Part shown: piece after piece, positions 3,332 to 64,000 of the stretch
Numbering within the stretch: the first letter of the stretch is position 1
How the letters are laid out: each line of letters begins with the position of its first letter
From: Candidatus Parcubacteria bacterium
Lineage (GTDB): Bacteria > Patescibacteriota > Minisyncoccia > Phycocordibacterales > UBA2100
Reading direction: 5' to 3'
Assembly: GCA_003599295.1 (NCBI GenBank)
Contig: QZJK01000001.1
Span: forward strand, 88-64,087
DNA length: 64,000 bases
Program-made: the position numbers and the translations under genes
Notes under the pieces: model-generated
What the model saw: the letters and a program-made list of their open reading frames with translations, nothing else
What the model was told of the DNA's origin: nothing
Database searches by the model: none

Positions 3332-4051
3332 TCACTTGCCGAAGTTCCGCGGTTGTTTCTCGAACCATTCGAGCGCCGCGCGGAATTCACGGTGTGTTAA
3401 ATCCGGCCAGAGCGTAGCCGTGTAATACATCTCGGCGTAGCTCAACTGGAACGGAAGAAAGCCGCTAAAGCGATTCTCGCCCCCCGTTCTGATGAGAAGG
3501 TCGACACGTGGCACGCCGCCGGAAAGCAGGTACCGCTCCGGCTCTAACTCAACATCTGCGAACCCACGGCTCTTCAGGGCCTGGAAAAGAGGTTTCAGTT
3601 CGTGCTCTGGGAGCCCGGAGTAGTTCGCCGCGACATGGACAACGAAATCGTGCCGGTCGTGGTGCTCCGAACCGTTCAAGCGCTTCAACCGTTCATAGAG
3701 CGGTGCGTACTTCTCGACATCCTTGAATTCCTCGATGTGGCCGAACGCGTGGACGTGACCGACTAAGCCGATCACATCGAGAAAGCGGATAGCGCCCTTC
3801 ATGAGAGAATCGATCTCGAAGTCGGACCTGTTCTTCATGTTCTCGCAGGAGAGGCCGAAAAAGGTGACGTGGCGCACTCCCTGCTTCTTCGCCCAGCGGG
3901 TGACGCGAAGCGCTTGAGCGGCTCCTTTTATATAGCCGGTTTCGAGCGATATCGCGCGTTGCGCGCTACCCCGTCGGTTTCCATTCGGGATAATAGCAAT
4001 GTGATTCGGAATCTTGCTCACGTTCCCTCCTCGCGCGGTTTTGCCGCACAC
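3332..4051 (-). CDS. uppS: cis-prenyltransferase (undecaprenyl diphosphate synthase family), divergent active-site motif
   Basis: HIAIIPNGNRRGS aligns to UppS HVAIIMDGNGRWA; FGLSCENMKNR matches FSSENWNRP; LLIRTGGENRFSGFLPFQ matches RTGGExRxSNFLLWQ. The canonical Asp of MDGN is Asn here. Confidence 0.8.
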   Translation of the reverse strand: MCGKTARGGNVSKIPNHIAIIPNGNRRGSAQRAISLETGYIKGAAQALRVTRWAKKQGVRHVTFFGLSCENMKNRSDFEIDSLMKGAIRFLDVIGLVGHVHAFGHIEEFKDVEKYAPLYERLKRLNGSEHHDRHDFVVHVAANYSGLPEHELKPLFQALKSRGFADVELEPERYLLSGGVPRVDLLIRTGGENRFSGFLPFQLSYAEMYYTATLWPDLTHREFRAALEWFEKQPRNFGK

Positions 4052-4108
4052 ATTAAGACCAGTGCTTTAGGCACCTTAATCTAAGGCGAGGGTCGCGTCA
4101 AAACGCTC

Positions 4109-7100
4109 TTACCGCTCCATCGAGTCCTTTTGCTTCTGGGATTCGGGAACTTCTACGGGTGCGATTTCCGCGAGGTCGCGCTCCATCTGCTCTATCATTT
4201 CGTGCTTCTTCGAACCAGGGAAACCGGTGCCTGCAGGGATGAGGCGGCCGATGATGACGTTCTCCTTGAGGCCGATGAGGCGGTCTACGGCGCCGGAAAC
4301 AGCAGCTTCGGCGAGCTTCCTCGGTGTGTTCTGGAATGAAATTGCGGAGAGGAACGATGCGCGTGTGAGAGACACTTCGGTGATGCCGAGGAGAAGCTGT
4401 TTCGCCTTCGCCGGCTCGCCGCCCGCGTCTTTTTGATTCTTGTTGATGCGGTCAAATTCGAAATCTGCGATTATCTCTCCTGCCGACACGCCCGTGTCGC
4501 CGGAGTGCGAGACCGCTACGCGGCTGAACATTTGCTTCACGATTATTTCCAAGTGTTTGCGCGCGGTCGAAACGCCCTGCAATTCGTAAATGCGGGTGAT
4601 TTCGCCGATGATGTATTCCTGCGCCTGCTCTTTGCCGCCGAGCGTGAAGATGTCTTCAAGGTCCGCGGAACCGTCCGTCATGAAGTCTCCCTTTTCCACG
4701 TGCGCGCCTTCTTTGACGATAATGGTGCGGAGAGGGTGTATGCGATATTCGGTGTCGCGCTTCGCGGCCTTGGCAGATTTCCCTACCGAACCTCCGTCCG
4801 GAAGTATCGTTATGACCGTCTCGATGCCGTCTTTCGCCATGCCAGAAACAGTGCCGGAAACGCGCGCGATGGTAGCGGGCGCCTTCGGCATGCGGCATTC
4901 GAACACTTCTTCAACGCGCGGCAGACCCATGGTGATGTCGCCGCCAACGGTCGCAACGCCACCCGTGTGGAAGGTACGCATAGTGAGCTGGGTTCCCGGT
5001 TCACCGATAGCTTGCGCCGCGATGACGCCGACCGCTTCACCGACATCCACTAATTCTCCTGTGGTGAGGTCCATACCGTAGCACTTCTGACAGACGCCGC
5101 GTGCCACTTTGCAGGTCATCGGAGAACGCACTTCAACTTCCTGAATATCGCTTGCTTCGATGTTCTTTGCGTCATCACGGGAGATGAGCGCGTTGCGTTT
5201 CAAGTTACCGGCTTCTTTGGCAAGTACGCGTCCCATGACACGGTCTGCGAACGAGCCGCCGATGTTCTCACGCCCCGGGCGATTGATGACAATGCCCTCT
5301 TTGGTGCCACAGTCGTCCTCAAGAATGACGACGTCGTGCGCCACGTCGAAGAGGCGGCGCGTAAGGTAGCCTGCGCGCGCGGTGTTGAGCGCGGTGTCGG
5401 CAAGACCCTTTCTCGCGCCGTGGGTCGAGATGAAGTATTCGATAGGCGTAAGGCCCTCTTTAAGCGAGGACGTGATAGGGAACTCGATGATCTCTCCGCG
5501 CGGGTTCGTGATGAGGCCTTTCATGCCGGCCATCTGGTGCAGCTGAACGGCGCTACCACGGGCTCCGGAGGTTATCATGTCGTGCACGGGACCCTGTCTA
5601 TCAAGTGATTCGATGACTTGCTTCCTAAGGTCATTCGATACTTTGCCCCAGATCTCTATCGTCATGCGGCGCCGCTCCATCTCGGTCAAAAGTCCGTTCG
5701 AGAAGTTCTCCTGCTCGCGCGCAGCCGCTTCGCGGCCGGCCTGAACAAGCTCTTCTTTGATTCCCGGCGTGATGACGTCGGAAATTGACCATGTGATGCC
5801 GGCGTGTGTCGCGTAGCGGAAGCCGAACGCCTTTATCTTGTCGAGAATGCCCGGCAAGCTGTCGAGTTTGTAGTGCGCTACAAGGTCGTGGACAAGTGCT
5901 CCCATTCGTTTGTTGGTTATTTCTTCGTTCACGAACGGGAAATCAGAGGGGAGTACCGAGTTGAACAAAAGCCTGCCGACGGTCGTCTCGAACACGTTGC
6001 CTCCGAACTGCTCGTATTTCTTGCTGTCGCCCGGAAGGACTTTTATCTTTGCGCGAAGGTCAATGACGCCGAAATCGCAGGCGGTGATGGCCGCGTTCGT
6101 CGAAGGCATCGCCTTCCCCTCGCCTTTTGCGCCGACGACCGTCTTCGTCATCCAGTAGCAGCCGAGCACGATGTCGAGGAGCTTCGATGCGACGACGACG
6201 TCGCCGCTTCCCGGCTTCAAGACGTTCTTATTCGCGGACATTATGTTCGCGGCTTCCATCTGTGCGGCTTCAGAGAGCGGCACGTGGACGGCCATCGCGT
6301 CGCCATCGAAGTCGGCGTTGTATGCCGGACAGACCAACGGGTGCACCTGAATAGCGTTGCCTTCGATAAGGACCGGGCGGAAGGCCTGAATGGATTGACG
6401 GTGAAGCGTCGGGGCGCGGTTCAAGAGCACATATTTATCTTTGATAGCTTCTTCGAGAATGGGCCACACTTCCGGAGCTTCGTCTTCGATGAGGCGCCCT
6501 GCGCCGCGGATGTTGTATGCGAGTTCGCGCGCGAGAAGTCCCTGAATGACGAACGGGCGGAAAAGTTCCAAGACCATGTGCTTCGGAAGACCGCACTCGT
6601 CGAGCGCCAAGTCCGGGCCGACGACGATGACGGAACGGCCCGAGTAGTCAACGCGTTTGCCGAGAAGGTTCTGGCGGAGGTAGCCGTGCTTTCCTTTGAG
6701 ATAATCAGCGAGCGATTTGAGTGCGCGGCGGCGGCCTCCGAGGATTCCCAAGATGCCGCTCCCGCGGCGCATGGAATTGTCGAGGAGCGCGTCCACAGCT
6801 TCCTGCAGAATGCGCTTTTCGTTGCGGAGGATGACTTCCGGCGCGTGAATGGCCTGCAAGCGCTTCAAACGGTTGTTTCTGTTGATGACGCGGCGATAGA
6901 GGTCGTTCAGGTCGCTTGATGCGTGGCGGCCTCCTTCAAGCGCGACCATGGGGCGAAGCGCGGGCGGCACCACAGGAAGGCGCGTCAAGAACATCCATTC
7001 GGGGCGCACATCGGCGCGGCGGAGCGCCTCGGCGAGCGCAACGCGTTTCCTAAGCTTGTCGCGCCCTGCGGCTCCGGATTCCGCGTACTCTTTCTTCAAG

Positions 7101-34346: not shown

Positions 34347-34453
34347 CGCTTTCCTCCGCGATGTGGCTCCGACGAACGCCCGAAATGGACGTCATGTGAG
34401 CCCGCACAGAACCTTCGCAAGAAGGTTCTGTGCGGGCATACACGAATGACTAA

Positions 34454-47512: not shown

Positions 47513-47583
47513 AGAAATAAGTGTACAGCGGTTGCATGAAAGCGCGACACCCCGAAGGGCGGGGTGTCGCGCCGAATATGTAG

Positions 47584-55320: not shown

Positions 55321-56331
55321 TTATTTGAGTCGCTTCCCTACCTCAAGAACGTGGAGGATGAGTGTGTGCACGTATCCCATTTCATTGTCGTACCACGCGA
55401 GAACTTTGACGAGCGTGCCGTCTACGACCCGAGTCATCTGGAGGTCCGCAATAGCGCCATAAGGAAGCCCCAGAATGTCGGATGATACGAGCGGTTCTTC
55501 GGAAACCGCGAACACGCGCTTCCATCGCTCGCTTGCCGCCGCCGCTTTGAGCGCACCGTTCACCTCTTCGACGGTCGTCGGCTTTTTCGAAACGAATGTG
55601 ATGTCTGCGATAGAACCTGCTGCAACGGGAACGCGAACTGAAATACCGTCGAATTTTCCTTTGAGCGACGGGTGGGCAAGCGCAGTCGCCTTTGCGGCAC
55701 CCGTTGACGAGGGCCCCAGGTTTGCTGCTCCCGCGCGTCCGCGGCGGAAATCGTCCGGCGCCGGACCGTCCACGATGGACTGTGTTGCCGTGTACGCGTG
55801 CGTCGTGTTCAGGATCGCGCGCTCGATGCCGATTGCCTCATTTAAAACGCCGACGATGGGCGAGCAGGCGTTCGTCGTGCAGGAAGCGTTCGAGGTGATG
55901 GCGCCCGCGCTCTCGAACAGTTCCTCGTTCGCACCGATGAGTATCGTCTCGACGCCGTCGCCTTTTGCGGGAGCCGTAATGACGACGTGTTTCGCACCGG
56001 CATCGATGTGCGGCTGGGCTTTTTCTTTCGATGTGAAAATGCCTGTTGATTCAACGACGACGTCCACATTCATGTCTTTCCACGGAAGCTTCGCGGGTTC
56101 CCGCTCCGAAAGCACGGGAATGGTTACCCCGTCGACGATAAGTGCCGCACCCTTTGCTTCAACCGAAAATGGCGCACGGCCGTACACGGTGTCGTACTTC
56201 AAAAGGTACGCGAGATTTTCGGGGCTCGTGAGGTCATTGACCGCGACGACTTCAATATCTTTGTTGGCATGGGACGCCCGCATAAACGCGCGGCCAATTC
56301 TTCCGAATCCATTTATCGCCACTCGCACCAT
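55321..56331 (-). CDS. gap: Glyceraldehyde-3-phosphate dehydrogenase
   Basis: MVRVAINGFGRIGR; ASCTTNACSPIV active-site Cys motif. Confidence 0.93.
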   Translation of the reverse strand: MVRVAINGFGRIGRAFMRASHANKDIEVVAVNDLTSPENLAYLLKYDTVYGRAPFSVEAKGAALIVDGVTIPVLSEREPAKLPWKDMNVDVVVESTGIFTSKEKAQPHIDAGAKHVVITAPAKGDGVETILIGANEELFESAGAITSNASCTTNACSPIVGVLNEAIGIERAILNTTHAYTATQSIVDGPAPDDFRRGRAGAANLGPSSTGAAKATALAHPSLKGKFDGISVRVPVAAGSIADITFVSKKPTTVEEVNGALKAAAASERWKRVFAVSEEPLVSSDILGLPYGAIADLQMTRVVDGTLVKVLAWYDNEMGYVHTLILHVLEVGKRLK

Positions 56332-56382
56332 CCAACTGTTATACCATTTTCACTGCGCTTGAGTGCGTCCGTATCTGTTAAT

Positions 56383-56407
56383 ATGATTGACATCGTAAGT
56401 CAATCAT
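56383..56407 (+). repeat. REP-like 25-bp perfect palindrome, copy 1 (left flank of the RAYT gene)
   Basis: ATGATTGAC-ATCGTAA-GTCAATCAT (9-bp stem, 7-nt loop). Confidence 0.85.
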
Positions 56408-57085
56408 ATGGAAGAGCTTTACCATTGCCTTAACCGCGGGGTCGACAAGCGAACGATCTTCACCGACAACAGGGACCGTGCTCGCTTCGTGCACGATCTC
56501 TATGAATTCAACGATGATAGACCAGCGTTCAACGCGGGGCGAGGGTTCAGCGGCAAGCCAGACCCCATGATTGACTTCGTAAGTCAATCATCGGAGCGGG
56601 GGGTGGCACTTGTCGACATACATGCGTGGTGTCTCATGGGAAATCACTACCATCTCTTACTTTCTGAAGCGAAAGAGGGCGGCGTTTCTCTCTTCCTTCG
56701 AAAGCTGAACGTTGGATATGCACGATATTTCAACGACAGACATCGGCGCCAAGGCACACTATTCCAGGGGCGAACAAAGAAGATCCATATCAGTTCCGAC
56801 GCGCATTTTCTCCACATACTGCACTATATTCATCTCAACCCGCTTGATTTTCTCAAGGGCTCTGAAGACTGGCGCTCGTTACGCGTCAAAAGCGCAAAAC
56901 AGGCCCTTAGCCATTTGATGCAATATCGTTGGAGCAGTTATCTTGATTACTGCGGCAGAAAAAATTTTCCTTCCATTCTGACGACCGGACTTTTCCGCGA
57001 TGTGTTCGGAAATTACGGAAGTGTCCTTTCCTCATACCTCAAGGATATTGAGCTTTCCGATGTCAAACCGTACCTGCTGGAATGA
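56408..57085 (+). mobile_element. tnpA: IS200/IS605-family HuH Y1 transposase (REP-associated tyrosine transposase-like)
   Basis: YHCLNRGVDKRTIF N-terminus; HuH motif GNHYHLLL; YIHLNPL motif; MQYRWSSYLDY candidate catalytic Tyr region; flanked by inverted REP-like hairpins; the unit is about 725 bp. Confidence 0.8.
56567..56591 (+). repeat. REP-like palindrome, copy 2, in-frame inside the RAYT ORF (encodes MIDFVSQS)
   Basis: ATGATTGAC-TTCGTAA-GTCAATCAT. Confidence 0.85.
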
Positions 57086-57106
57086 TTGACTTACGAAGTC
57101 AATCAT
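57082..57106 (+). repeat. REP-like palindrome, copy 3 (right flank, inverted loop relative to copies 1 and 2)
   Basis: ATGATTGAC-TTACGAA-GTCAATCAT; overlaps the RAYT stop and lies 5 nt from the giant gene stop. Confidence 0.85.
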
Positions 57107-57111
57107 TCCCG

Positions 57112-60100
57112 TTACGGGGTTGTGTCTTCAGGGACTTGAGGAGTCGGTTCTGGTGTAGGTTCCGGCGTAGTGGTTGCGGGTTCCGGTTCTGGTGTAGGTT
57201 CGGGAGCAGGTTCTGCTTGCGGTGAGCTTGTTGAATCCGGTTCAGTCTGCCCCGACTCGTCAGGCGTCGGGGATGTCGGTTCTGGCTCCGGAGGAGTCGT
57301 GGTCGCGGTATCAGGCGGCGGCGTTGTCCCTGTCTCTTCTGGCGGTGGGGTCGGAGTCGGCTCGTACACCTCGACGATGCGCGTCGCTACTGTGGCATTG
57401 TCGTCTTTGTCTACGGCGCGATAGGTTATCTCATAGGTCGTCGAGGTTGATGTGTCGAGGTGGACGGCGTTCACATGCTCGCCGTCCACAAATACCGTCG
57501 CGATGAGGCCGTCGTCCTTGTCGTCGGAAACGAGAGCGCCCAAGTCGGTGTATGAGCTGCCGACCGCGACGCGCGCAGGGTTGTCGCCCATGATGATTAT
57601 TCTCGGCGCACCAGCCTCTCCCGATGATTGACCTACGAGGTCAATCATTGAAGCTGGGTCGCCCTCGCCATTTCCATCTGCGTCCGTGGATGTAGAGGTA
57701 GAGGTAGACACCGCGGCTCCCGCAGCCATCGCCTCAAGGTCATCTCCGTCCACACAAAATTCGGTGCCGTCGGACTTTTCTACGCAGATCTCTTTTGTAT
57801 GCACACGATTCGCAAAGAAATCCGTAATCCCGTTCGCCGCGTCGGCGAACCAGGATGCGATGCTCCCAAAGAGCCGTCCGAGGAAACTGTTGTCGAAATA
57901 TGAGGGGGAAGTGGAGGTGGCTTGCTCCGAGCTCATGGCAGTTGAACTCGCGCTCGTGATGTCGGATGTGGTCGCGCTGGTGGTGGTCGTAGCGGGGCCG
58001 AAGAGCCGCTCGGTAAATGCGGTGATGAGGCGCTCCACGAATCCCGGTGTCGTGGTCGCGGTAGAGCTTGCGGCAGAGTTGGTGGCAAGCAGTGCATCAG
58101 TGAGCGCACTCAAGCTAATCCCTGGCTGGAGGTCAATAAATATTTCGATGAGTTCATCTTCGCTTGCGCCGCCCGTGTACGGCTCAAGCGCAATGCCAAC
58201 CGTCGCGTCAAAGAGTGTCGCTTTGCGGCCAACGCCCGGCGTTGATGAGAGCGCGATACGGTCGCCGATATTAATCTCACCGCCTTCTATAGTTACCTTC
58301 GTCGGCACGCGGCCCTTGAGAGCTACTGGCCGCTGGCCAAAGGGCTGCTTGGTGTCTCCGAGCAAGAGACCTGGTTTGGTCGAGATAACCCCCGCAAGTG
58401 GGCGGTCTGCTGCCGCGTCTGCTAGAGAGACTGCTATTGGATAGCTCGTTGCAATCGCAACGATGTCTCCCGCCTCAACACCTGGACCCTCCACAGCATA
58501 GAGCTCTGCCAGGTCTGCGCCGCTGTTGGAGATGGTGTAGATATATATGGTGACACCGCCGTGGCCGCCTTGGCCGCCGTCGCCGCCGGTGGTGCCGGCG
58601 CCGCCACCACCACCACCACCCATGGTGCCGTTGACGCCGTTGACGGAGCCCTGTATGCCGCCGTCGCCGCCGCCAAGAAAGCCGCCGAGGACGCTGCCGG
58701 TTTCGCCGGTTTCGCCGAGTTCGCTGTGGGCGCCGGTCTGGCCGTTGCCGTTGCTGTTGCCGGCGCCGCCACCGCCACCGCCGGGGCCGCCGGAGTTGCT
58801 GGCGCCGTTGTTGCCGGCGCCACCGGAGCCGCCGGTGTAGTTGAAATCACCCCCCGAGCCGGTGCCGCCGGTGCCGATGGTGGTGTTGGCACTTCCGCCG
58901 CCGCCGGCACCACCTGTCGCTTGGATGGTAGGGCTGGTGCATGCGGTTGCATTCGTTCCGTAGCAGGTGGTGCCTCCTGCCGTGCCCGTGCCAGTGCCGG
59001 TGTTCCCCGCGCCGCCTGCGGCGACGGTGTAGTAGCTTGCGGTCGTGTTCGTAATTATCTTCCGAGAATAGCCGCCTCCGCCACCGCCGTTGCCGCCGTC
59101 ATCGGCGGCATCTTCGCCGCCTCCGCCACCGCCGCCGCTTCCCCAAACCTCTGCGGTGTAGTACTGGGTGTTTGATGGGAGAGTAAGCACGCCTGCAGAA
59201 AAACTTGGGGAGCTGTCGACGGCTCCAGTAAAGACGACAGAGACGTTCGAGCCCGGCGTCGATGTGGAGTATACGAACGCAAGCGCTGTTGTCTCCCCTA
59301 TGCACTCGCCATTGCGGGCATAGCAGCCCGAGGTGATGTTGATACCAGTGCCGAATGTTGATGTTGCAGTTGCAGAAATATTTATCGTGTTTGCACCCGT
59401 GTTGCCCAATGAAAGTAATGTACCGGGACTGGAGGTGCCTATGCCGACGTTGCCGGTGTTTTGAACAATGGTGACAAGGTTTGCAGAAAAGGCCCCGGCG
59501 TCTGTCATCTTTTGGAATACCCAACCACCGCCGGTAATACTTGTCCCACCATCGTACACTAATCTTCCGTTCTGATTACCGGTAGTCCGGGTGTCAGACA
59601 TCATAAAGGCCGCTTGGCCTGCCGTGCTAACACTCAACTTTGAAAGAGGGCTCGTCGTCCCGATACCGACGTTGCCGGTACTGGTTACTACCACCTTAGG
59701 TGTATTGGTTGCGCCAGGAGTATCCGCGGTATTAAATGCAAATCCACCGTAACCACCCAAAGTAAGAGCATTAACATTAAACTCGCCATGTAGCCCACGA
59801 CCGATGTAGAGGCCCGCGCCGGTGCTTGTTGCCGCTGCTGCAGTGTCTCCAAAAGACACAACTCCGGTGGTGCCGTCGTAGCCGGATACTTTTAGATTTC
59901 CTTTTACTTCTAACCGGTCAATGGGGGTTGTATCTCCGATACCGACGTCGCCGGTCGAAGTTAGCCGCATTTTTTCTGAGAAGCCCGTCCCGTCCGCCGC
60001 CGTCGAAGGTCCGAAACGGAGATCGTTGACGGTCCCTCCATTCCAGTGGATGGCCGGGCCGACGCTGCTGTGCGCGAACAGTGAAGTGTAGTCGTTGCCA

Positions 60101-63100
60101 GACTCGGCTGCGATATTTGTGCCTTGCCCGCTGGTTTTCCAGACCGCGAGCTGCACGTTCGGAGTCGTCGTCCCGATGCCGACTTTGCCTGCCGTAGTTA
60201 TAGTAAGTGTCGAGGTGCCAACGGCCGTGTCGGTCCCACTAAAGTAGGCAACCTGGCCAGTGGTGCCGGTGAGTGAAGCGCTTCCGCCACCCACACAGGT
60301 ATCGTTGATGGCGTAGCAGCCGGTCGTGATGTTGAAGCCGACGTTTGAAGTGGAGGTGGCAGAGCCCGAGATGGTGAGACCGGTGACGGTTGTCGTGCCG
60401 AAGCCGGTGCTTGCGATAGAGAACGGAGAGTTAACGGTGTCGACGAGCGCATCGGAGGTCGTTGCGAGCTTGAACGTGCCGCCGGTAGATTGCAGGAACC
60501 AGTGTTTGAGGTTGGCGCCTGCACTCGTGTCGGAGAGAGTGAACTTCGGTGTGGTGCTTGCCACATGAAGAATGCTATTGGGGGTCGTGGTACCGATACC
60601 GAATCTGGCGGCCGCTGTAATGCGTGCGGCAACGCCATTGTTTTCGTCAAATGAGGAGTTATTGACGTTGAAACTTATCCCTTTGGTGGCACCTGCTTGT
60701 AGTACGACAAAGTTACTGTCGAGTCCAACGTTTCCTCGACTGTCGCCGAAGTCCACGCGCCAGGTGCCAGCGCCTTGACCAACGTTCACAACACCACCTA
60801 TGACCTCTAAATCACCTGTTGTCGTAGCGTTACCCGAGACTGTGAGGCCACCTGCCCCCGTGCCGTCACCGATAGTAGAAGAAGCGAGGGCGTAGAGCCC
60901 GACATTGAAGCCGATAAGGGTGGAGGTGGAGTTTGCGGCAGTGGAGCCGAAGGTGGTCGGCGTCCACGAGAATGTGCCGCTTCCTGTGCCGCATGCAGTG
61001 CCGGTGTTCGAGATGGTGCCGTTTGTGCTGAAGGTCGCACAACCTGCAGTGCCGCCTGCGCTGGAGACCGTGAGGTTGGTCGTGCTTGCCGTGCCCGAGA
61101 CCGTGATGGCGGTCGAGGAGGCGTATGGGAATGTGGAGGCAGCGGTGGTGGAGGTTGCGACAAAGTGTGAGGCGTCTACGAGTGAAGTGAAGCGTGCGTT
61201 TCCGGTTACGTCGAGATTGTAGGTGGGGGAAGTGTCTCCGATCCCGATGTTGCCGCTATTATCTATTACAAACCTGCTCGTTGTTGCTGTTCCGGCGGCA
61301 TTGATATAGTTAATCGTAAACAAGCTACTAGATTCAAACGCTGCATTAGATGCCTTTCCTCCAATCACCCATGCGGAATAACCGCTGTTGATTCTTGTTC
61401 CTGTATTGGCCACCTCACCAGGATTATCAATATAAGCGTTCACACCAAAGAAACCTAGCTGATGGTTCCCATCGCCGGTGCGTACTCCCATAACAACATC
61501 GTCCGCACCGTTCACATTGCTTGTAACACGCAACATTTCCAGACCCGACGAGGCATCATCTCTTGATAAATGAAGTAATGACCCCGGATTCGCCGTCCCC
61601 ACCCCTACGTTACCTTTTCCATCAATCACGAAGCGATCGTTGGTGCCGAGTGCGGTGGAGGAAGAAATCTTGAACTTGCCTCCATCAGAGTAGTCCTGAC
61701 CGATAGTCCACTTGTATGGGTCGCCGGTGAGGGAGGAGAATTCGATGGCTGAATCCGCCGTTGAATTAAAAATGGAGAGTTTTTGGTTGGGCGTCGTCGT
61801 CCCTAGCCCCACGTTGCCGGAATAGTCGATTGTCATTGCCGTATTGGTGATACCGCTAGCGTATGAATTTGAAGTGCCGAAATGGAGGTAACTGCCTGAG
61901 GAGGTAACTTGCGAGCCGATGCGAGCTTTTGGAATACCGAATGAGGCCGCGCCACTCACAGCACTTCTGCTTCCGAAATCAATTACAGTATATTCATTTG
62001 CACCCGTACCCGCTTGCACCCGTAGTTGACCATCAGTGGTCCCTGTAAATGCCGAAAGTGCAGTCCCCTCTATATTTAGATTTGTTTCTGGTGTAGTTGT
62101 CCCGATACCGACGTTGCCGGTCGTTGTTATCCTGACCTTTTCGCCCGCGGCAGCATAAAATCGCAAATTGCCCGCATCAGAATCCAAAATCATGTCGGTC
62201 AAGTTATCGCCACCACCGAGATAGCCGATGCGAGTTGCAGCATTGTAGAGAGTTAGGTAATTCTGCGATCCGCCTGTAGCTTCGAGGCGAAGCATCTCTC
62301 CTGAACTACTCGTGACGTTTAACTTTGTTGCAGGTGTCGTCGTCCCGATGCCGACGTTGCCGTTTTCATTGACCATCAGGAGGGATGTGCTCACTTGTCC
62401 CGTGCCTGCCGCTAACGTTTGAAAATGGAACCCGCCGCCGCCGAAGGACATGATGGACCCCTGCCTGCCTGCATGGTCGGTCGTTCCCGTGAACGGGCTC
62501 GTATAGTTGAGAGGCTGAAGACTCGAGGTCACGTTCACCCCGCTGGTAAGCAATGTGAGTTCTCCGTCCGGCCCTTGGTAGAGGCGCGCGGATCCAGCGA
62601 GAGCGGTAGCCGCTTTATTCTCCCACTGAGCCAAAAGTTCTCCGGTTGCCGACGTGCCGTACACATGGAGCTTCGTCGAGGGCGATGTCGTCCCGATACC
62701 GACGTTGCCGCTGTCGAGAATGCGCATCGCTTCGGTGAGCGTGCCGGAACGGAGCGTCGAGAAAGCGAGGTTGCCGGCTCCGCCGTTGTAATTCTGGGTG
62801 AGGATGCCGGTAATGGCCCCCGTCGAGGTGGCGTTCACGAGGTCTTTGGTGCGGAAGGAGAGGCGGGAGGCGGTCGAAGTGGCGGAGAAATCGTTCGTGA
62901 GGTAGAGCTGGTCAGCGGTGGCGCCCGAAGAAGAGTTGGTGACGTCGAGTTTCGTTCCCGGCGTTGAGGTGCCGATGCCGACGTTGCCTGTTGTTGATTG
63001 CAACACTACGGCCCCAGATTCGTTATCTATTTTCAGTGGGATTGCGCCAGTACCTTGGATCCCTTTTTGCACACCACCCGCCTGGAACAACATATACTCT

Positions 63101-64000
63101 GTGCCCGGTGAGGACGCATTGGAAATCTTGAGCGCGTTTCCAGTCCCGGCGTTGGTCAAGACCGTGAGGGGCGTGTCGGGTGTCGTCGTCCCGATGCCGA
63201 CGCGTTGCGACGAATCGATTCGAACCGCTTCGGTACCCGATGTGCGGAACCTCATGCTTGAGCCAGCCTCCGCTCCATAAAAGTCGAAAAGGTCGTTCGT
63301 CCCGTCGTAACTAATCATTGCATACCGTGTCGAAGCGTCCGAGATATCACCGATGACGGTCGTGTTGCTTCCTGCACTCGGATGCAAACGAATGCCTTGG
63401 TTCGTAGTCGTGAAGAGATAGAGTGGTGCGATTGTGTTATTCGTCGAAGGTTGAGAACCATTCGCGCCGCCGATTATGTTACTGGAGAAATAGGCTTTGA
63501 GTGTAGTCGTCGCTCCTCCTGAAATGGTGAGTCCGCCTGCTTGAGCGCCGTTCCCGATGGTGGTGGACGCGAGGAAGAGGTTGCCGCCAGTGAACCTGTT
63601 GTTGCCCGAGAAGGTGTTGGAGTCGGCAAGGAGAGTTGAGGAGGCGAACGTCCACGTGGAGGTGGAGAAGGTGTAGAGCGCGCCGGTCGAGTCGGCTGCG
63701 AGGGCGCCGGAAGTGTAATTGGAGAGAGTGAGCGTGGAGGTGGCGGTGAGTGCGCCGCCGAAGAACGCGGTGCCGCTCACATATGAGTTGCCCTGTACTG
63801 AAAGTGTTTTGGCTGGCGAGGTGGTGCCGATGCCGACGAGGCCGGAGGAGTTTATTATAAGCCGGGGCGTATAATTGGTGCCGAGCCACACGTTACTAAC
63901 GCCAGACAGGCCTACGGCGTAATCACCGCCGAAGGTATTATTGGGATCTCCATAGGAAAGATGGCCAACAGTGAAGTCACCTACTGACCCGGCGTTGAGA
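57112..64000 (-). CDS. Giant repeat-containing surface protein (>2290 aa; 5' end beyond window): tail-fibre-like GNVGIGTTxP repeats, Gly-rich region, C-terminal DUF5011 Ig-like domain and Pro/Thr/Glu-rich tail
   Basis: More than 15 repeats of G(N/D)VGIGTT(S/T)P..KL.V; the frame stays open upstream of the track's GTG start to the window edge; C-terminal IIIMGDNPARVAVGSSYTDLGALVSDDKDDG...TYEITYRAVDKDDNATVATRIVEV resembles DUF5011. Confidence 0.8.
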   Translation of the reverse strand, partial: LNAGSVGDFTVGHLSYGDPNNTFGGDYAVGLSGVSNVWLGTNYTPRLIINSSGLVGIGTTSPAKTLSVQGNSYVSGTAFFGGALTATSTLTLSNYTSGALAADSTGALYTFSTSTWTFASSTLLADSNTFSGNNRFTGGNLFLASTTIGNGAQAGGLTISGGATTTLKAYFSSNIIGGANGSQPSTNNTIAPLYLFTTTNQGIRLHPSAGSNTTVIGDISDASTRYAMISYDGTNDLFDFYGAEAGSSMRFRTSGTEAVRIDSSQRVGIGTTTPDTPLTVLTNAGTGNALKISNASSPGTEYMLFQAGGVQKGIQGTGAIPLKIDNESGAVVLQSTTGNVGIGTSTPGTKLDVTNSSSGATADQLYLTNDFSATSTASRLSFRTKDLVNATSTGAITGILTQNYNGGAGNLAFSTLRSGTLTEAMRILDSGNVGIGTTSPSTKLHVYGTSATGELLAQWENKAATALAGSARLYQGPDGELTLLTSGVNVTSSLQPLNYTSPFTGTTDHAGRQGSIMSFGGGGFHFQTLAAGTGQVSTSLLMVNENGNVGIGTTTPATKLNVTSSSGEMLRLEATGGSQNYLTLYNAATRIGYLGGGDNLTDMILDSDAGNLRFYAAAGEKVRITTTGNVGIGTTTPETNLNIEGTALSAFTGTTDGQLRVQAGTGANEYTVIDFGSRSAVSGAASFGIPKARIGSQVTSSGSYLHFGTSNSYASGITNTAMTIDYSGNVGLGTTTPNQKLSIFNSTADSAIEFSSLTGDPYKWTIGQDYSDGGKFKISSSTALGTNDRFVIDGKGNVGVGTANPGSLLHLSRDDASSGLEMLRVTSNVNGADDVVMGVRTGDGNHQLGFFGVNAYIDNPGEVANTGTRINSGYSAWVIGGKASNAAFESSSLFTINYINAAGTATTSRFVIDNSGNIGIGDTSPTYNLDVTGNARFTSLVDASHFVATSTTAASTFPYASSTAITVSGTASTTNLTVSSAGGTAGCATFSTNGTISNTGTACGTGSGTFSWTPTTFGSTAANSTSTLIGFNVGLYALASSTIGDGTGAGGLTVSGNATTTGDLEVIGGVVNVGQGAGTWRVDFGDSRGNVGLDSNFVVLQAGATKGISFNVNNSSFDENNGVAARITAAARFGIGTTTPNSILHVASTTPKFTLSDTSAGANLKHWFLQSTGGTFKLATTSDALVDTVNSPFSIASTGFGTTTVTGLTISGSATSTSNVGFNITTGCYAINDTCVGGGSASLTGTTGQVAYFSGTDTAVGTSTLTITTAGKVGIGTTTPNVQLAVWKTSGQGTNIAAESGNDYTSLFAHSSVGPAIHWNGGTVNDLRFGPSTAADGTGFSEKMRLTSTGDVGIGDTTPIDRLEVKGNLKVSGYDGTTGVVSFGDTAAAATSTGAGLYIGRGLHGEFNVNALTLGGYGGFAFNTADTPGATNTPKVVVTSTGNVGIGTTSPLSKLSVSTAGQAAFMMSDTRTTGNQNGRLVYDGGTSITGGGWVFQKMTDAGAFSANLVTIVQNTGNVGIGTSSPGTLLSLGNTGANTINISATATSTFGTGINITSGCYARNGECIGETTALAFVYSTSTPGSNVSVVFTGAVDSSPSFSAGVLTLPSNTQYYTAEVWGSGGGGGGGEDAADDGGNGGGGGGYSRKIITNTTASYYTVAAGGAGNTGTGTGTAGGTTCYGTNATACTSPTIQATGGAGGGGSANTTIGTGGTGSGGDFNYTGGSGGAGNNGASNSGGPGGGGGGAGNSNGNGQTGAHSELGETGETGSVLGGFLGGGDGGIQGSVNGVNGTMGGGGGGGAGTTGGDGGQGGHGGVTIYIYTISNSGADLAELYAVEGPGVEAGDIVAIATSYPIAVSLADAAADRPLAGVISTKPGLLLGDTKQPFGQRPVALKGRVPTKVTIEGGEINIGDRIALSSTPGVGRKATLFDATVGIALEPYTGGASEDELIEIFIDLQPGISLSALTDALLATNSAASSTATTTPGFVERLITAFTERLFGPATTTTSATTSDITSASSTAMSSEQATSTSPSYFDNSFLGRLFGSIASWFADAANGITDFFANRVHTKEICVEKSDGTEFCVDGDDLEAMAAGAAVSTSTSTSTDADGNGEGDPASMIDLVGQSSGEAGAPRIIIMGDNPARVAVGSSYTDLGALVSDDKDDGLIATVFVDGEHVNAVHLDTSTSTTYEITYRAVDKDDNATVATRIVEVYEPTPTPPPEETGTTPPPDTATTTPPEPEPTSPTPDESGQTEPDSTSSPQAEPAPEPTPEPEPATTTPEPTPEPTPQVPEDTTP
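57624..57648 (-). repeat. REP-like palindrome, copy 4, in-frame inside the giant gene (encodes MIDLVGQS on the minus strand)
   Basis: Minus strand ATGATTGAC-CTCGTAG-GTCAATCAT. Confidence 0.85.
58545..58920 (-). repeat. GC-rich simple-sequence region ((GGC)n/(GCC)n-like) encoding the Gly-rich segment of the giant protein
   Basis: Runs of gccgccaccgccacc...; all six frames open here; encodes GGGGGGG/GSGG stretches. Confidence 0.7.

Follow-up and report, generated by a model that had tools for sequence, protein, structure and literature searches.

A RAYT-like nuclease gene of Patescibacteria and its cognate hairpins, including copies within coding sequence

How can one perfect palindrome stand on both sides of a transposase-like gene, in the reading frame of that gene and once more in the reading frame of the giant surface-protein gene beside it? 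The question is raised by a 64 kb stretch of contig QZJK01000001.1 (Candidatus Parcubacteria bacterium, assembly GCA_003599295.1, positions 88 to 64,087), hereafter the window, where a gene related to REP-associated tyrosine transposases (RAYT; REP, repetitive extragenic palindrome) is accompanied by copies of a 25-bp palindrome. The results allow us to consider it probable that this locus is a REPtron-like module, namely a single-copy domesticated gene for a RAYT-type Y1 HUH enzyme together with its own cognate hairpin, and that it belongs to a family of such modules in Patescibacteria. As far as seen in the loci examined, the gene family is confined to Kaiserbacteria/Paceibacterota. The comparative set consisted of 80 loci with relatives of the gene, obtained by a metagenome scan, and four loci of the candidate phyla radiation (CPR), obtained by a genome scan. 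Palindrome counts for the metagenome-assembled genome (MAG) from which the window comes cover the window.

Hairpin layout and the RAYT-like enzyme

The palindrome ATGATTGAC-N7-GTCAATCAT was found in the window in four exact copies, starting at positions 56383, 56567, 57082 and 57624, all of which sit inside 1.3 kb. The scan was repeated with up to 3 mismatches, and no additional copy was found in the 64 kb. The expected number of copies is 0.03, and none of the 100 shuffles used to estimate the chance level reached four. The 9-mer arm occurs eight times in the window, every time within one of the four copies. Alignment of the copies with 40 nt on either side revealed nothing in common outside the 25-mer, which indicates that no larger unit resembling a miniature inverted-repeat transposable element or a REPIN is present in the window. 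When folded as single-stranded DNA (ssDNA), every copy lay well below its own shuffles (z-scores −4.5 to −7.8).

Copy 1 (56383–56407, ATGATTGAC-ATCGTAA-GTCAATCAT) is located in the 76-nt spacer between the RAYT-like gene (56408–57085, plus strand) and the divergent gap gene (55321–56331, minus strand), which encodes glyceraldehyde-3-phosphate dehydrogenase (GAPDH). The last base of this copy directly precedes the ATG codon of the RAYT-like gene, and its extended stem (56381–56409) takes in the AT of this codon. Copy 2 (56567–56591, plus strand) is in frame within the RAYT-like gene and encodes residues M54–S62 (MIDFVSQSS); its centre is 63 nt 5' of the NHYH codons. The TGA stop codon of the gene forms bases 2–4 of copy 3 (57082–57106), which, with an extended stem of 14 bp (57079–57109), takes up the greater part of the 26 nt between this gene and the convergent giant surface-protein gene (57112–63891, minus strand, 2259 aa listed). 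Copy 4 (57624–57648, minus strand) is in frame in a linker of the giant protein, where it encodes residues 2082–2090 (MIDLVGQSS). The first-pass annotation had described the palindrome on both sides of the gene in a unit of about 725 bp, as well as the two in-frame copies with their peptides. The unit (56383–57106) proved to span 724 bp and its layout recurs in dozens of related loci, and the coordinates and frames of the coding copies were confirmed.

The loops of copies 1 to 4 read ATCGTAA, TTCGTAA, TTACGAA and CTACGAG, respectively. Their outermost bases covary (T..A, C..G), so the effective stem is 10–11 bp and the loop 3–5 nt. Read as its reverse complement, the loop of copy 3 equals that of copy 2 and agrees with that of copy 1 at six of its seven positions; the proposed mutual inversion of the flanking loops holds to this extent, but it is not a rule, and the orientation flips between close relatives. 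TGA is present in frames 2 and 3 of ATGATTGAC and, because the arms are palindromic, in two frames on both strands. For this reason, all coding copies use the ATG-ATT-GAC frame and encode M-I-D...Q-S. The common frame and the similar peptides of copies 2 and 4 are thus a consequence of the sequence and not a coincidence.

In the related loci, hairpins were accepted if they were perfect and had a stem of at least 8 bp, and sites were counted in 55 complete genes with at least 38% identity. A hairpin was found upstream (within 110 nt of the start) in 34 of these genes and at or just past the stop codon in 36; in 21 genes an internal hairpin was present with its centre 54–87 nt 5' of the NHxH codons. 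The background density of such hairpins was 0.53 per kb. An identical arm was shared by the upstream and downstream sites in 25 loci, by the upstream and internal sites in 18 and by all three sites in 15, and matching hairpins between sites were found in more loci when one or two mismatches were permitted. The distance of the hairpin was approximately 0–49 nt to the start codon and −6 to +30 nt to the stop codon.

The sequence of the hairpin differs between loci yet is the same across the sites of one locus. Four copies of ATGATGGAGAT-cgt-ATCTCCATCAT were found in L020, and three copies each of ATATCGGGAGAT in L023, TGTGGGACGT-gca in L043, ATGTTGAGAGT-tca in L071, CAATCGGAAG in L066, CTATGAGA-cccga in L060 and GATTGAAGT-cgg in L068. 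This locus-specific sharing among three sites shows that the three-copy layout of the window is the norm of the family. The copy in the transposase gene is not a one-off; it is a conserved feature of the family, which evolves in concert with the flanking hairpins.

A C-rich tract (TCCCC or CCCC) was noticed 0–15 nt 5' of the upstream hairpin in L020, L021, L023, L024, L025, L026, L035, L043 and L073, and CCC or CCA (a Pro codon) often stands directly before the internal hairpin. This tract could be a candidate recognition or cleavage motif comparable to the GTAG tag; in the window, copy 1 is not preceded by it. The window has two more long perfect hairpins (34400–34437 and 47542–47572, with stems of 17 and 13 bp), whose sequences show no relation to the palindrome family.

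The RAYT-like gene is an open reading frame (ORF) of 225 aa with the motifs GNHYHLLL and YIHLNP. The HUH motif H80-Y81-H82 is encoded at 56645–56653 and the catalytic-type tyrosine Y140 of YIHLNP at 56825–56827; a YRWSSY tail motif is also present. Pfam assigned residues 69–142 to Y1_Tnp (PF01797) with 24.9 bits (cut-off 23), and this was the sole domain, no helix-turn-helix (HTH) domain being found. The protein has a counterpart of 100% identity, annotated as hypothetical, in a Candidatus Parcubacteria MAG, and it has more than 5000 relatives, the named ones belonging mostly to Candidatus Kaiserbacteria or Paceibacterota. In an alignment of 27 homologues (58–90% identity), H80, H82, Y140 in YIHLNP and the YRWSSY tail were invariant or nearly so.

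A PDB sequence-profile search with the protein gave zero matches. The best PDB match of its AlphaFold2 model in Foldseek was 4er8_A, the E. coli TnpA_REP in complex with a REP hairpin (target-normalised TM 0.65), followed by the TnpA proteins of ISDra2 and IS608. The tyrosine motif is of the class-2 type Y---NP (YIHLNP) and not the Y---Q of IS200, according to the criterion of Quentin et al. (2018, PMC6006769, Table 1), and the signature NHYH / FQ / YIHLNP / SS best fits subclass 2.1, as judged by inspection against the motif table of PMC6006769. No tnpB-like ORF adjoins the gene. Its product is a RAYT-type Y1 HUH enzyme with a TnpA-type fold and presumably the corresponding catalysis. The initial assignment to RAYT-type HuH Y1 transposases is supported by the Pfam score above the cut-off, the invariant motifs and the structural match to 4er8.

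Inheritance of the module and constraint on its coding copies

The exact palindrome was searched for in one genome per species (185,579 species) and was found in only four CPR genomes, with 1–2 copies each; it lies at the RAYT gene in L005 and L015 and in the giant gene in L006. An orphan copy with the loop CTCCGAG was noted at 382–406 of L008 (Paceibacterota), in the intergenic DNA that separates rpsJ from a small ribbon-helix-helix-like ORF, and no RAYT-like gene is present within 6.8 kb of it. Matches in non-CPR genomes (Deinococcales, Shewanella, Pseudoalteromonas and others) had unrelated loops and flanks and were set aside. In approximately 285 kb of flanks of the related loci, additional hairpin copies were few and nearby, namely a copy at +772 in L020, a REPIN-like doublet about 1.8 kb away in L024, and doublets in L053 and L065.

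Two further hairpins were observed in L077. A copy of the locus's own RAYT hairpin, CAATGTCAAGGT-tga-ACCTTGACATTG (approximately 6253–6279, minus strand), is in frame in ligA, where the encoded MSRFNLDI immediately precedes the KxDG motif. In the same locus, the C-terminal residues of both convergent gene products (NVKVEP* and NVKVQP*) are encoded by the 3' hairpin (approximately 4516–4542).

The RAYT-like gene is present in one copy in the window, and the gap gene serves as a conserved synteny anchor. The divergent gap/RAYT pair was found in 11 loci (L005, L015, L021, L022, L023, L026, L032, L053, L069, L073 and L080), among which the identity of gap falls to 56%. Neither relatives of the RAYT-like protein nor palindrome copies were found in viral contigs, which gives no sign of a phage link. 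Judged from these comparisons, the gene appears to be single-copy, vertically inherited and chromosomally fixed ('domesticated').

The gap gene of L080 (2846–3850) is 74% identical to that of the window, and the RAYT-like gene next to it (4001–4657) is only 37% identical. The L080 hairpin CAAGGCGTCGCCTTG-ctag differs from that of the window and resembles the hairpin of the RAYT-like paralogue in L006 (4379–5143). This points to a second RAYT-like lineage, which may hold the same gap-adjacent position.

The closest relatives, L100 and L101, have proteins 88% identical to that of the window and DNA about 85% identical. Copy 1 is identical in the three loci, and copy 3 differs by one base. In copy 2 (window 56576–56582), only the three central loop bases differ from L100, CGT versus ACG, which changes FV to LR; such a swap in an otherwise identical context suggests a single inversion event rather than two substitutions. 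On the 5' side, the homology with L100 continues through copy 1 into gap. On the 3' side, the homology with L100 and L101 stops exactly at the edge of copy 3 (window 57106/57107; approximately 1243 in L100 and 1187 in L101), and the downstream gene there is unrelated, the giant gene not being adjacent. In another pair used to compare mobility, L049 and L058, the homology extends into the downstream gene.

Identity between the window and L100 is 95–98% over 56306–56650 and 82% over 56652–57081 (Fisher p = 7e-8). This drop within the RAYT-like gene suggests a recombination mosaic. A divergence step at the internal hairpin was considered and rejected; the step is located some 60–70 nt downstream of it, near the HUH codons.

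From locus to locus, the internal site encodes unrelated peptides (DPMIDFVSQSS, NPMMEIRSPSS, KYREIVSPDI, KNVGRATSHI, NVESSTLNM and VQQSEAGLPIVE), each of which mirrors the flanking hairpin of its own locus. In the AlphaFold2 model, the peptide of copy 2 falls within residues 42–63, between the helix 21–33 and the strand 69–76; no other long stretch of the model has such low confidence (predicted local distance difference test, pLDDT, below 50), and the stretch is predicted to be a disordered loop. The median spacing from NRG to NHxH is 70 aa in proteins with an internal hairpin, approximately 60–64 aa in relatives with flanking hairpins only, where the loop is about 6–10 aa shorter, and 41 aa in distant relatives. 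This pattern is consistent with an insertion of about nine codons into an already long variable loop. Close homologues show a loose M-x-D-[LF]-[VR] pattern, in which the alternation of V with R and of F with L arises because the loop inverts between CGT and ACG. The internal copy is thus constrained as DNA and not as a peptide.

The giant protein contains a Bact_surface_Ig-like domain (Pfam) at residues 2100–2175. Copy 4 lies 512–536 nt from the 3' end of its gene and 10 residues upstream of this domain. The giant gene is also convergently downstream of a RAYT-like gene in L006, L015 and L022. Its orthologue in L006, another Kaiserbacteria genome, contains the same 25-mer (25/25) in the same place before the Ig-like domain. 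The linker DNA around the palindrome cannot be aligned between the two genomes, and the DNA of the Ig domain downstream is about 75% identical. Within the palindrome, 8/8 amino acids and 7/7 synonymous codons are identical; synonymous identity elsewhere in the giant genes is 129/260 (50%), and amino-acid identity in the 40 codons upstream of the palindrome is 16/40.

The palindrome is absent from the giant-gene orthologues of L022 and L015, and its peptide was found in 0 of 105 Ig-domain homologues; note that the search for these homologues was word-based and returned no long orthologues, L006 and L022 being found by DNA scans. Complete identity amid diverged DNA, together with the absence elsewhere, marks copy 4 as a lineage-restricted insertion under nucleotide-level constraint or homogenisation. 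Chance in-frame placement and an ordinary peptide shared by orthologues had both been foreseen as refuting outcomes. Neither agrees with a palindrome that is identical as DNA in L006, lacking in L022 and L015, and constrained or homogenised at the nucleotide level.

Next to the giant gene of L006 stands a RAYT-like paralogue of 37% identity. The hairpin of this paralogue, GGCAAGGC-aag-GCCTTGCC, is located internally and after the stop codon, and the giant-gene palindrome has no matching partner in that locus. In addition, a 15-bp tandem duplication (AATCATCAGGGCAAG twice, SSGQE SSGQV) was observed at L006 3737–3791 right after the palindrome, starting in its right arm.

Explanations of the hairpin set

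The REPtron-like module that we regard as probable builds on the anatomy, family-wide co-variation, low copy number, synteny and nucleotide-level conservation observed in these loci. Its hairpin would occupy three conserved sites, namely directly before the start codon, in an in-frame stretch of about nine codons some 60 nt before the HUH codons, and on or after the stop codon. A few additional copies would be seeded nearby and, in the window, into the linker of the convergent giant gene. From the analogy with the TnpA of IS608 and with the TnpA_REP of E. coli, S. maltophilia and Marinomonas, it is probable that the hairpin, folded as ssDNA, is bound by the enzyme, which would cleave and rejoin DNA beside it. 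We infer such action on the hairpins, the mechanism of homogenisation and any cellular role from the observations above.

Copies that are identical within a genome and drift between genomes imply copying or conversion among them, and homogenisation could proceed by enzyme-mediated copying or by gene conversion. Template-switch correction at quasi-palindromes yields perfect stems and flips loops. If it acts here, as established mutational mechanisms would suggest, it would keep the stems perfect and invert the small loop. Coding copies would survive because the protein segments that contain them are unstructured and tolerant of sequence change and because the palindrome is open in only one frame.

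Several points weigh against this explanation. In about one third of the complete loci, any given site has no perfect hairpin. The orientation of the loop varies without rule between sites and genomes, which is unexpected if the substrate is an ssDNA hairpin that is strand-specific and has one defined loop; random orientation would also fit recognition of a duplex palindrome by a dimer. The canonical GT[AG]G foot that defines REPs is absent from the hairpins of the compared loci, whose feet read ATGAT.., ATAT.., AAAG.. and the like, GTAG being present only within the loops of some copies. A classical REP system, which the first-pass annotation had proposed, is not what was found: four copies lie in 1.3 kb, the hairpin is not dispersed in tens to hundreds of copies, and the term REP in its population sense is inapplicable because representative genomes hold 1–2 exact copies. 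As for the enzyme, the sole NCBIfam match, REP_Tyr_transpos (NF047646), reached 39.8 bits and fell well short of the equivalog cut-off of 80, the AlphaFold2 model is only of moderate confidence (pLDDT 66.8), and the Foldseek E-value for 4er8_A is only 1.2e-3.

The hairpins might instead be mainly gene-expression elements, which may coexist with the module proposed above; as the principal explanation we consider this unlikely. The upstream hairpin would then occlude a promoter or translation start or be an autoregulatory operator for a dimeric protein, the downstream hairpin would be a bidirectional terminator or an mRNA stabiliser between convergent genes, and the internal ones would be pause or attenuation sites. 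The close association of hairpin positions with start and stop codons agrees with such roles, and the random loop orientation suits a symmetric duplex site. REPs of other systems are described, in part of the literature, as regulators in 3' untranslated regions. The left arm of copy 1 also forms a −10-like hexamer, TATGAT, within a weak sigma-70-like match (TTGAGT-17-TATGAT at 56359–56387); the match is to the consensus alone, and such matches occur as often as chance predicts. Outer stems are AT-rich in the relatives too (TATGAT, ATAT, ATAA).

Against roles in expression, no T-tract follows copy 3, and terminator-like matches of the scan lie elsewhere at chance level. No Rfam family was matched at 56000–58000 with E up to 1. 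Selection at the RNA level on the transcribed strand would produce an excess of G.T over A.C mismatches; in the imperfect copies the counts were 22 and 19, that is, without bias, in a weak test with ambiguous mismatches at the stem ends. In addition, the copy in the giant gene, the one in ligA and the intergenic orphan of L008 are left unexplained.

A rather improbable extension of the REPtron-like module is that the three-site hairpin set is no remnant of REP spread and forms a self-contained, enzyme-operated DNA circuit, in which the hairpins also serve as RAYT-dependent breakpoints for the exchange of neighbouring DNA. The in-frame copy, guarded by selection on the reading frame, would be a 'safe-haven' master that keeps hairpin and enzyme genetically linked in genomes that are streamlined and leave almost no intergenic space. 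The exchanged DNA would include the 3' cassette of the giant gene between copies 3 and 4, whose loops are oriented alike. The earlier suggestion of a recombination or insertion hotspot between the transposase and the giant gene has gained only indirect support, in that the homology with close relatives ends at the 3' hairpin and the giant-gene copy is kept base for base in one orthologue. If the circuit were real, a domesticated ssDNA nuclease would be available for targeted rearrangement or diversification of a CPR cell-surface gene.

It is very unlikely that the unit 56383–57106 is an autonomous element of the IS200/IS605 type, moving by single-strand peel-and-paste, with the additional palindromes as its remnants or solo ends. 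A Y1 transposase gene between subterminal hairpins, the presence of the IS608 and ISDra2 TnpA among the structural matches and the fact that homology with the closest relative breaks off precisely at the 3' hairpin could be read in this way. However, the motif is Y---NP and not Y---Q, tnpB is missing, and one copy is present in 64 kb. The gap-adjacent position is kept in 11 loci over a divergence of gap down to 56% identity, the homology with L100 passes through copy 1 into gap, and viral contigs contain no such element.

Finally, that MIDxVxQSS is a functional motif of both proteins and its palindromy incidental is hardly credible, and the co-variation data in effect refute it. The giant proteins of the window and of L006 do share the identical peptide and close RAYT homologues the loose pattern, but the 25-mer also occupies two non-coding or stop-overlapping sites, the internal peptides of other loci are unrelated and mirror their own hairpins, the V/R and F/L alternation is loop inversion, all seven synonymous positions are kept compared with 50% elsewhere, and none of the 105 Ig-domain homologues has the peptide.

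Comparison with known systems

Among domesticated bacterial transposases that are accompanied by a vertically inherited population of repeats, those of RAYT/REP systems have, to our knowledge, been studied best. The tiny genomes of Patescibacteria, densely packed with genes, would carry a near-minimal form of such a system, in which a single enzyme gene is joined by three or four cognate hairpins, one of them forming part of the enzyme's reading frame at a conserved site. Because hairpins turn over between genomes and are identical within a genome, the family offers many natural enzyme–substrate pairs for the study of specificity co-evolution, and it can also be useful for studying palindrome homogenisation and loop inversion. 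For annotation, it follows that short palindrome-encoded peptides in CPR proteins, as in the giant surface protein and the LigA of L077, can be repeat insertions and not functional motifs. No description of RAYT/REP systems in Patescibacteria was found by full-text literature searches.

Nunvar in 2010 and Ton-Hoang in 2012 reportedly described REPtrons, in which tnpA_REP/RAYT genes are flanked by cognate REPs. The module of the window is similar to them in its single-copy Y1 HUH gene, class-2 Y---NP motif, genome-specific co-evolving hairpins on both sides, fixed locus and vertical inheritance. Perfect-palindrome REPs are likewise a known class of substrates, and some TnpA_REP enzymes process them in vitro (Corneloup et al. 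2021, PMC8266576). In contrast to REPtrons, the module of the window has no GT[AG]G foot, its repeat is only 25–27 nt long, its host belongs to Patescibacteria and its protein misses the NCBIfam threshold. In addition, REPtron repeats are dispersed in tens to hundreds of copies, whereas here 1–4 copies are essentially confined to the module.

The IS200/IS605 elements IS608 and ISDra2 share the Y1 HUH fold and have subterminal hairpins recognised as ssDNA, and they provide the mechanistic model for the probable activity of the enzyme. They differ in having a Y---Q motif and in being multi-copy, mobile and often accompanied by tnpB, none of which was seen in the module of the window.

Among the RAYT groups, subclass 2.1/TIRYT (Bertels group 1; Di Nocera et al. 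2013, PMC3733652) is similar in the motifs NH[YF]H, FQ and Y[IV]HLNP, the SS tail and a length near 238 aa, as well as in low copy number and in flanking repeats that often lie outside any dispersed family. However, members of subclass 2.1 carry a C-terminal HTH-like domain (Bac_DnaA_C / HTH_23 / HTH_28), and Pfam found none in the protein of the window. The flanks of TIRYT genes are terminal inverted repeats with GGGGWSAS, whereas those of the window are self-complementary hairpins; subclass 2.1 is described as being without REP hairpins (PMC6006769).

In subclass 2.4 (Bertels group 4), REPs were found 'inserted within the tnpA_REP genes themselves' with the frame undisrupted (Quentin et al. 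2018, PMC6006769). The likeness extends to the location in a peripheral variable region of the enzyme and to the predominance of such copies within the subclass. The site in the family of the window differs in that it lies upstream of the HuH motif (63 nt in the window), between helix A and strand 2. The signature of subclass 2.4 is NH[IFV]H/WQ/YIxNNP versus NHYH/FQ/YIHLNP here, which places the protein outside that subclass, and the REPs of subclass 2.4 are long, of the 'double foot' type and GTAG-tagged, unlike the hairpins of the window.

Ogata et al. are said to have reported in 2000 the Rickettsia palindromic elements, which are in-frame palindromic repeats in unrelated protein-coding genes. 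Intragenic REPs are also present in many genes, including that for DNA ligase, and have been linked to these elements (Di Nocera et al. 2013, PMC3733652). The copies described here are similar to both in being in-frame palindromes of unrelated genes, tolerated in loops or linkers, and DNA ligase is a host in L077 as well. The Rickettsia elements differ in being 100–150 bp long and numerous and in having no tie to an adjacent RAYT gene, whereas here single hairpins of 25–27 nt lie within about 2.5 kb of a RAYT-like gene.

The in-frame hairpin was first taken as unusual; its frame is forced by stop codons, and with REPs inside RAYT and other genes already published (PMC6006769, PMC3733652), the phenomenon itself is known. 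Compared with these systems, the new features are the near absence of a dispersed population, the host clade, the combination of a subclass-2.1-like enzyme with hairpins, the different, position-fixed insertion site before the HUH motif, and a minimal perfect palindrome of 25–27 nt that lacks the GTAG tag.

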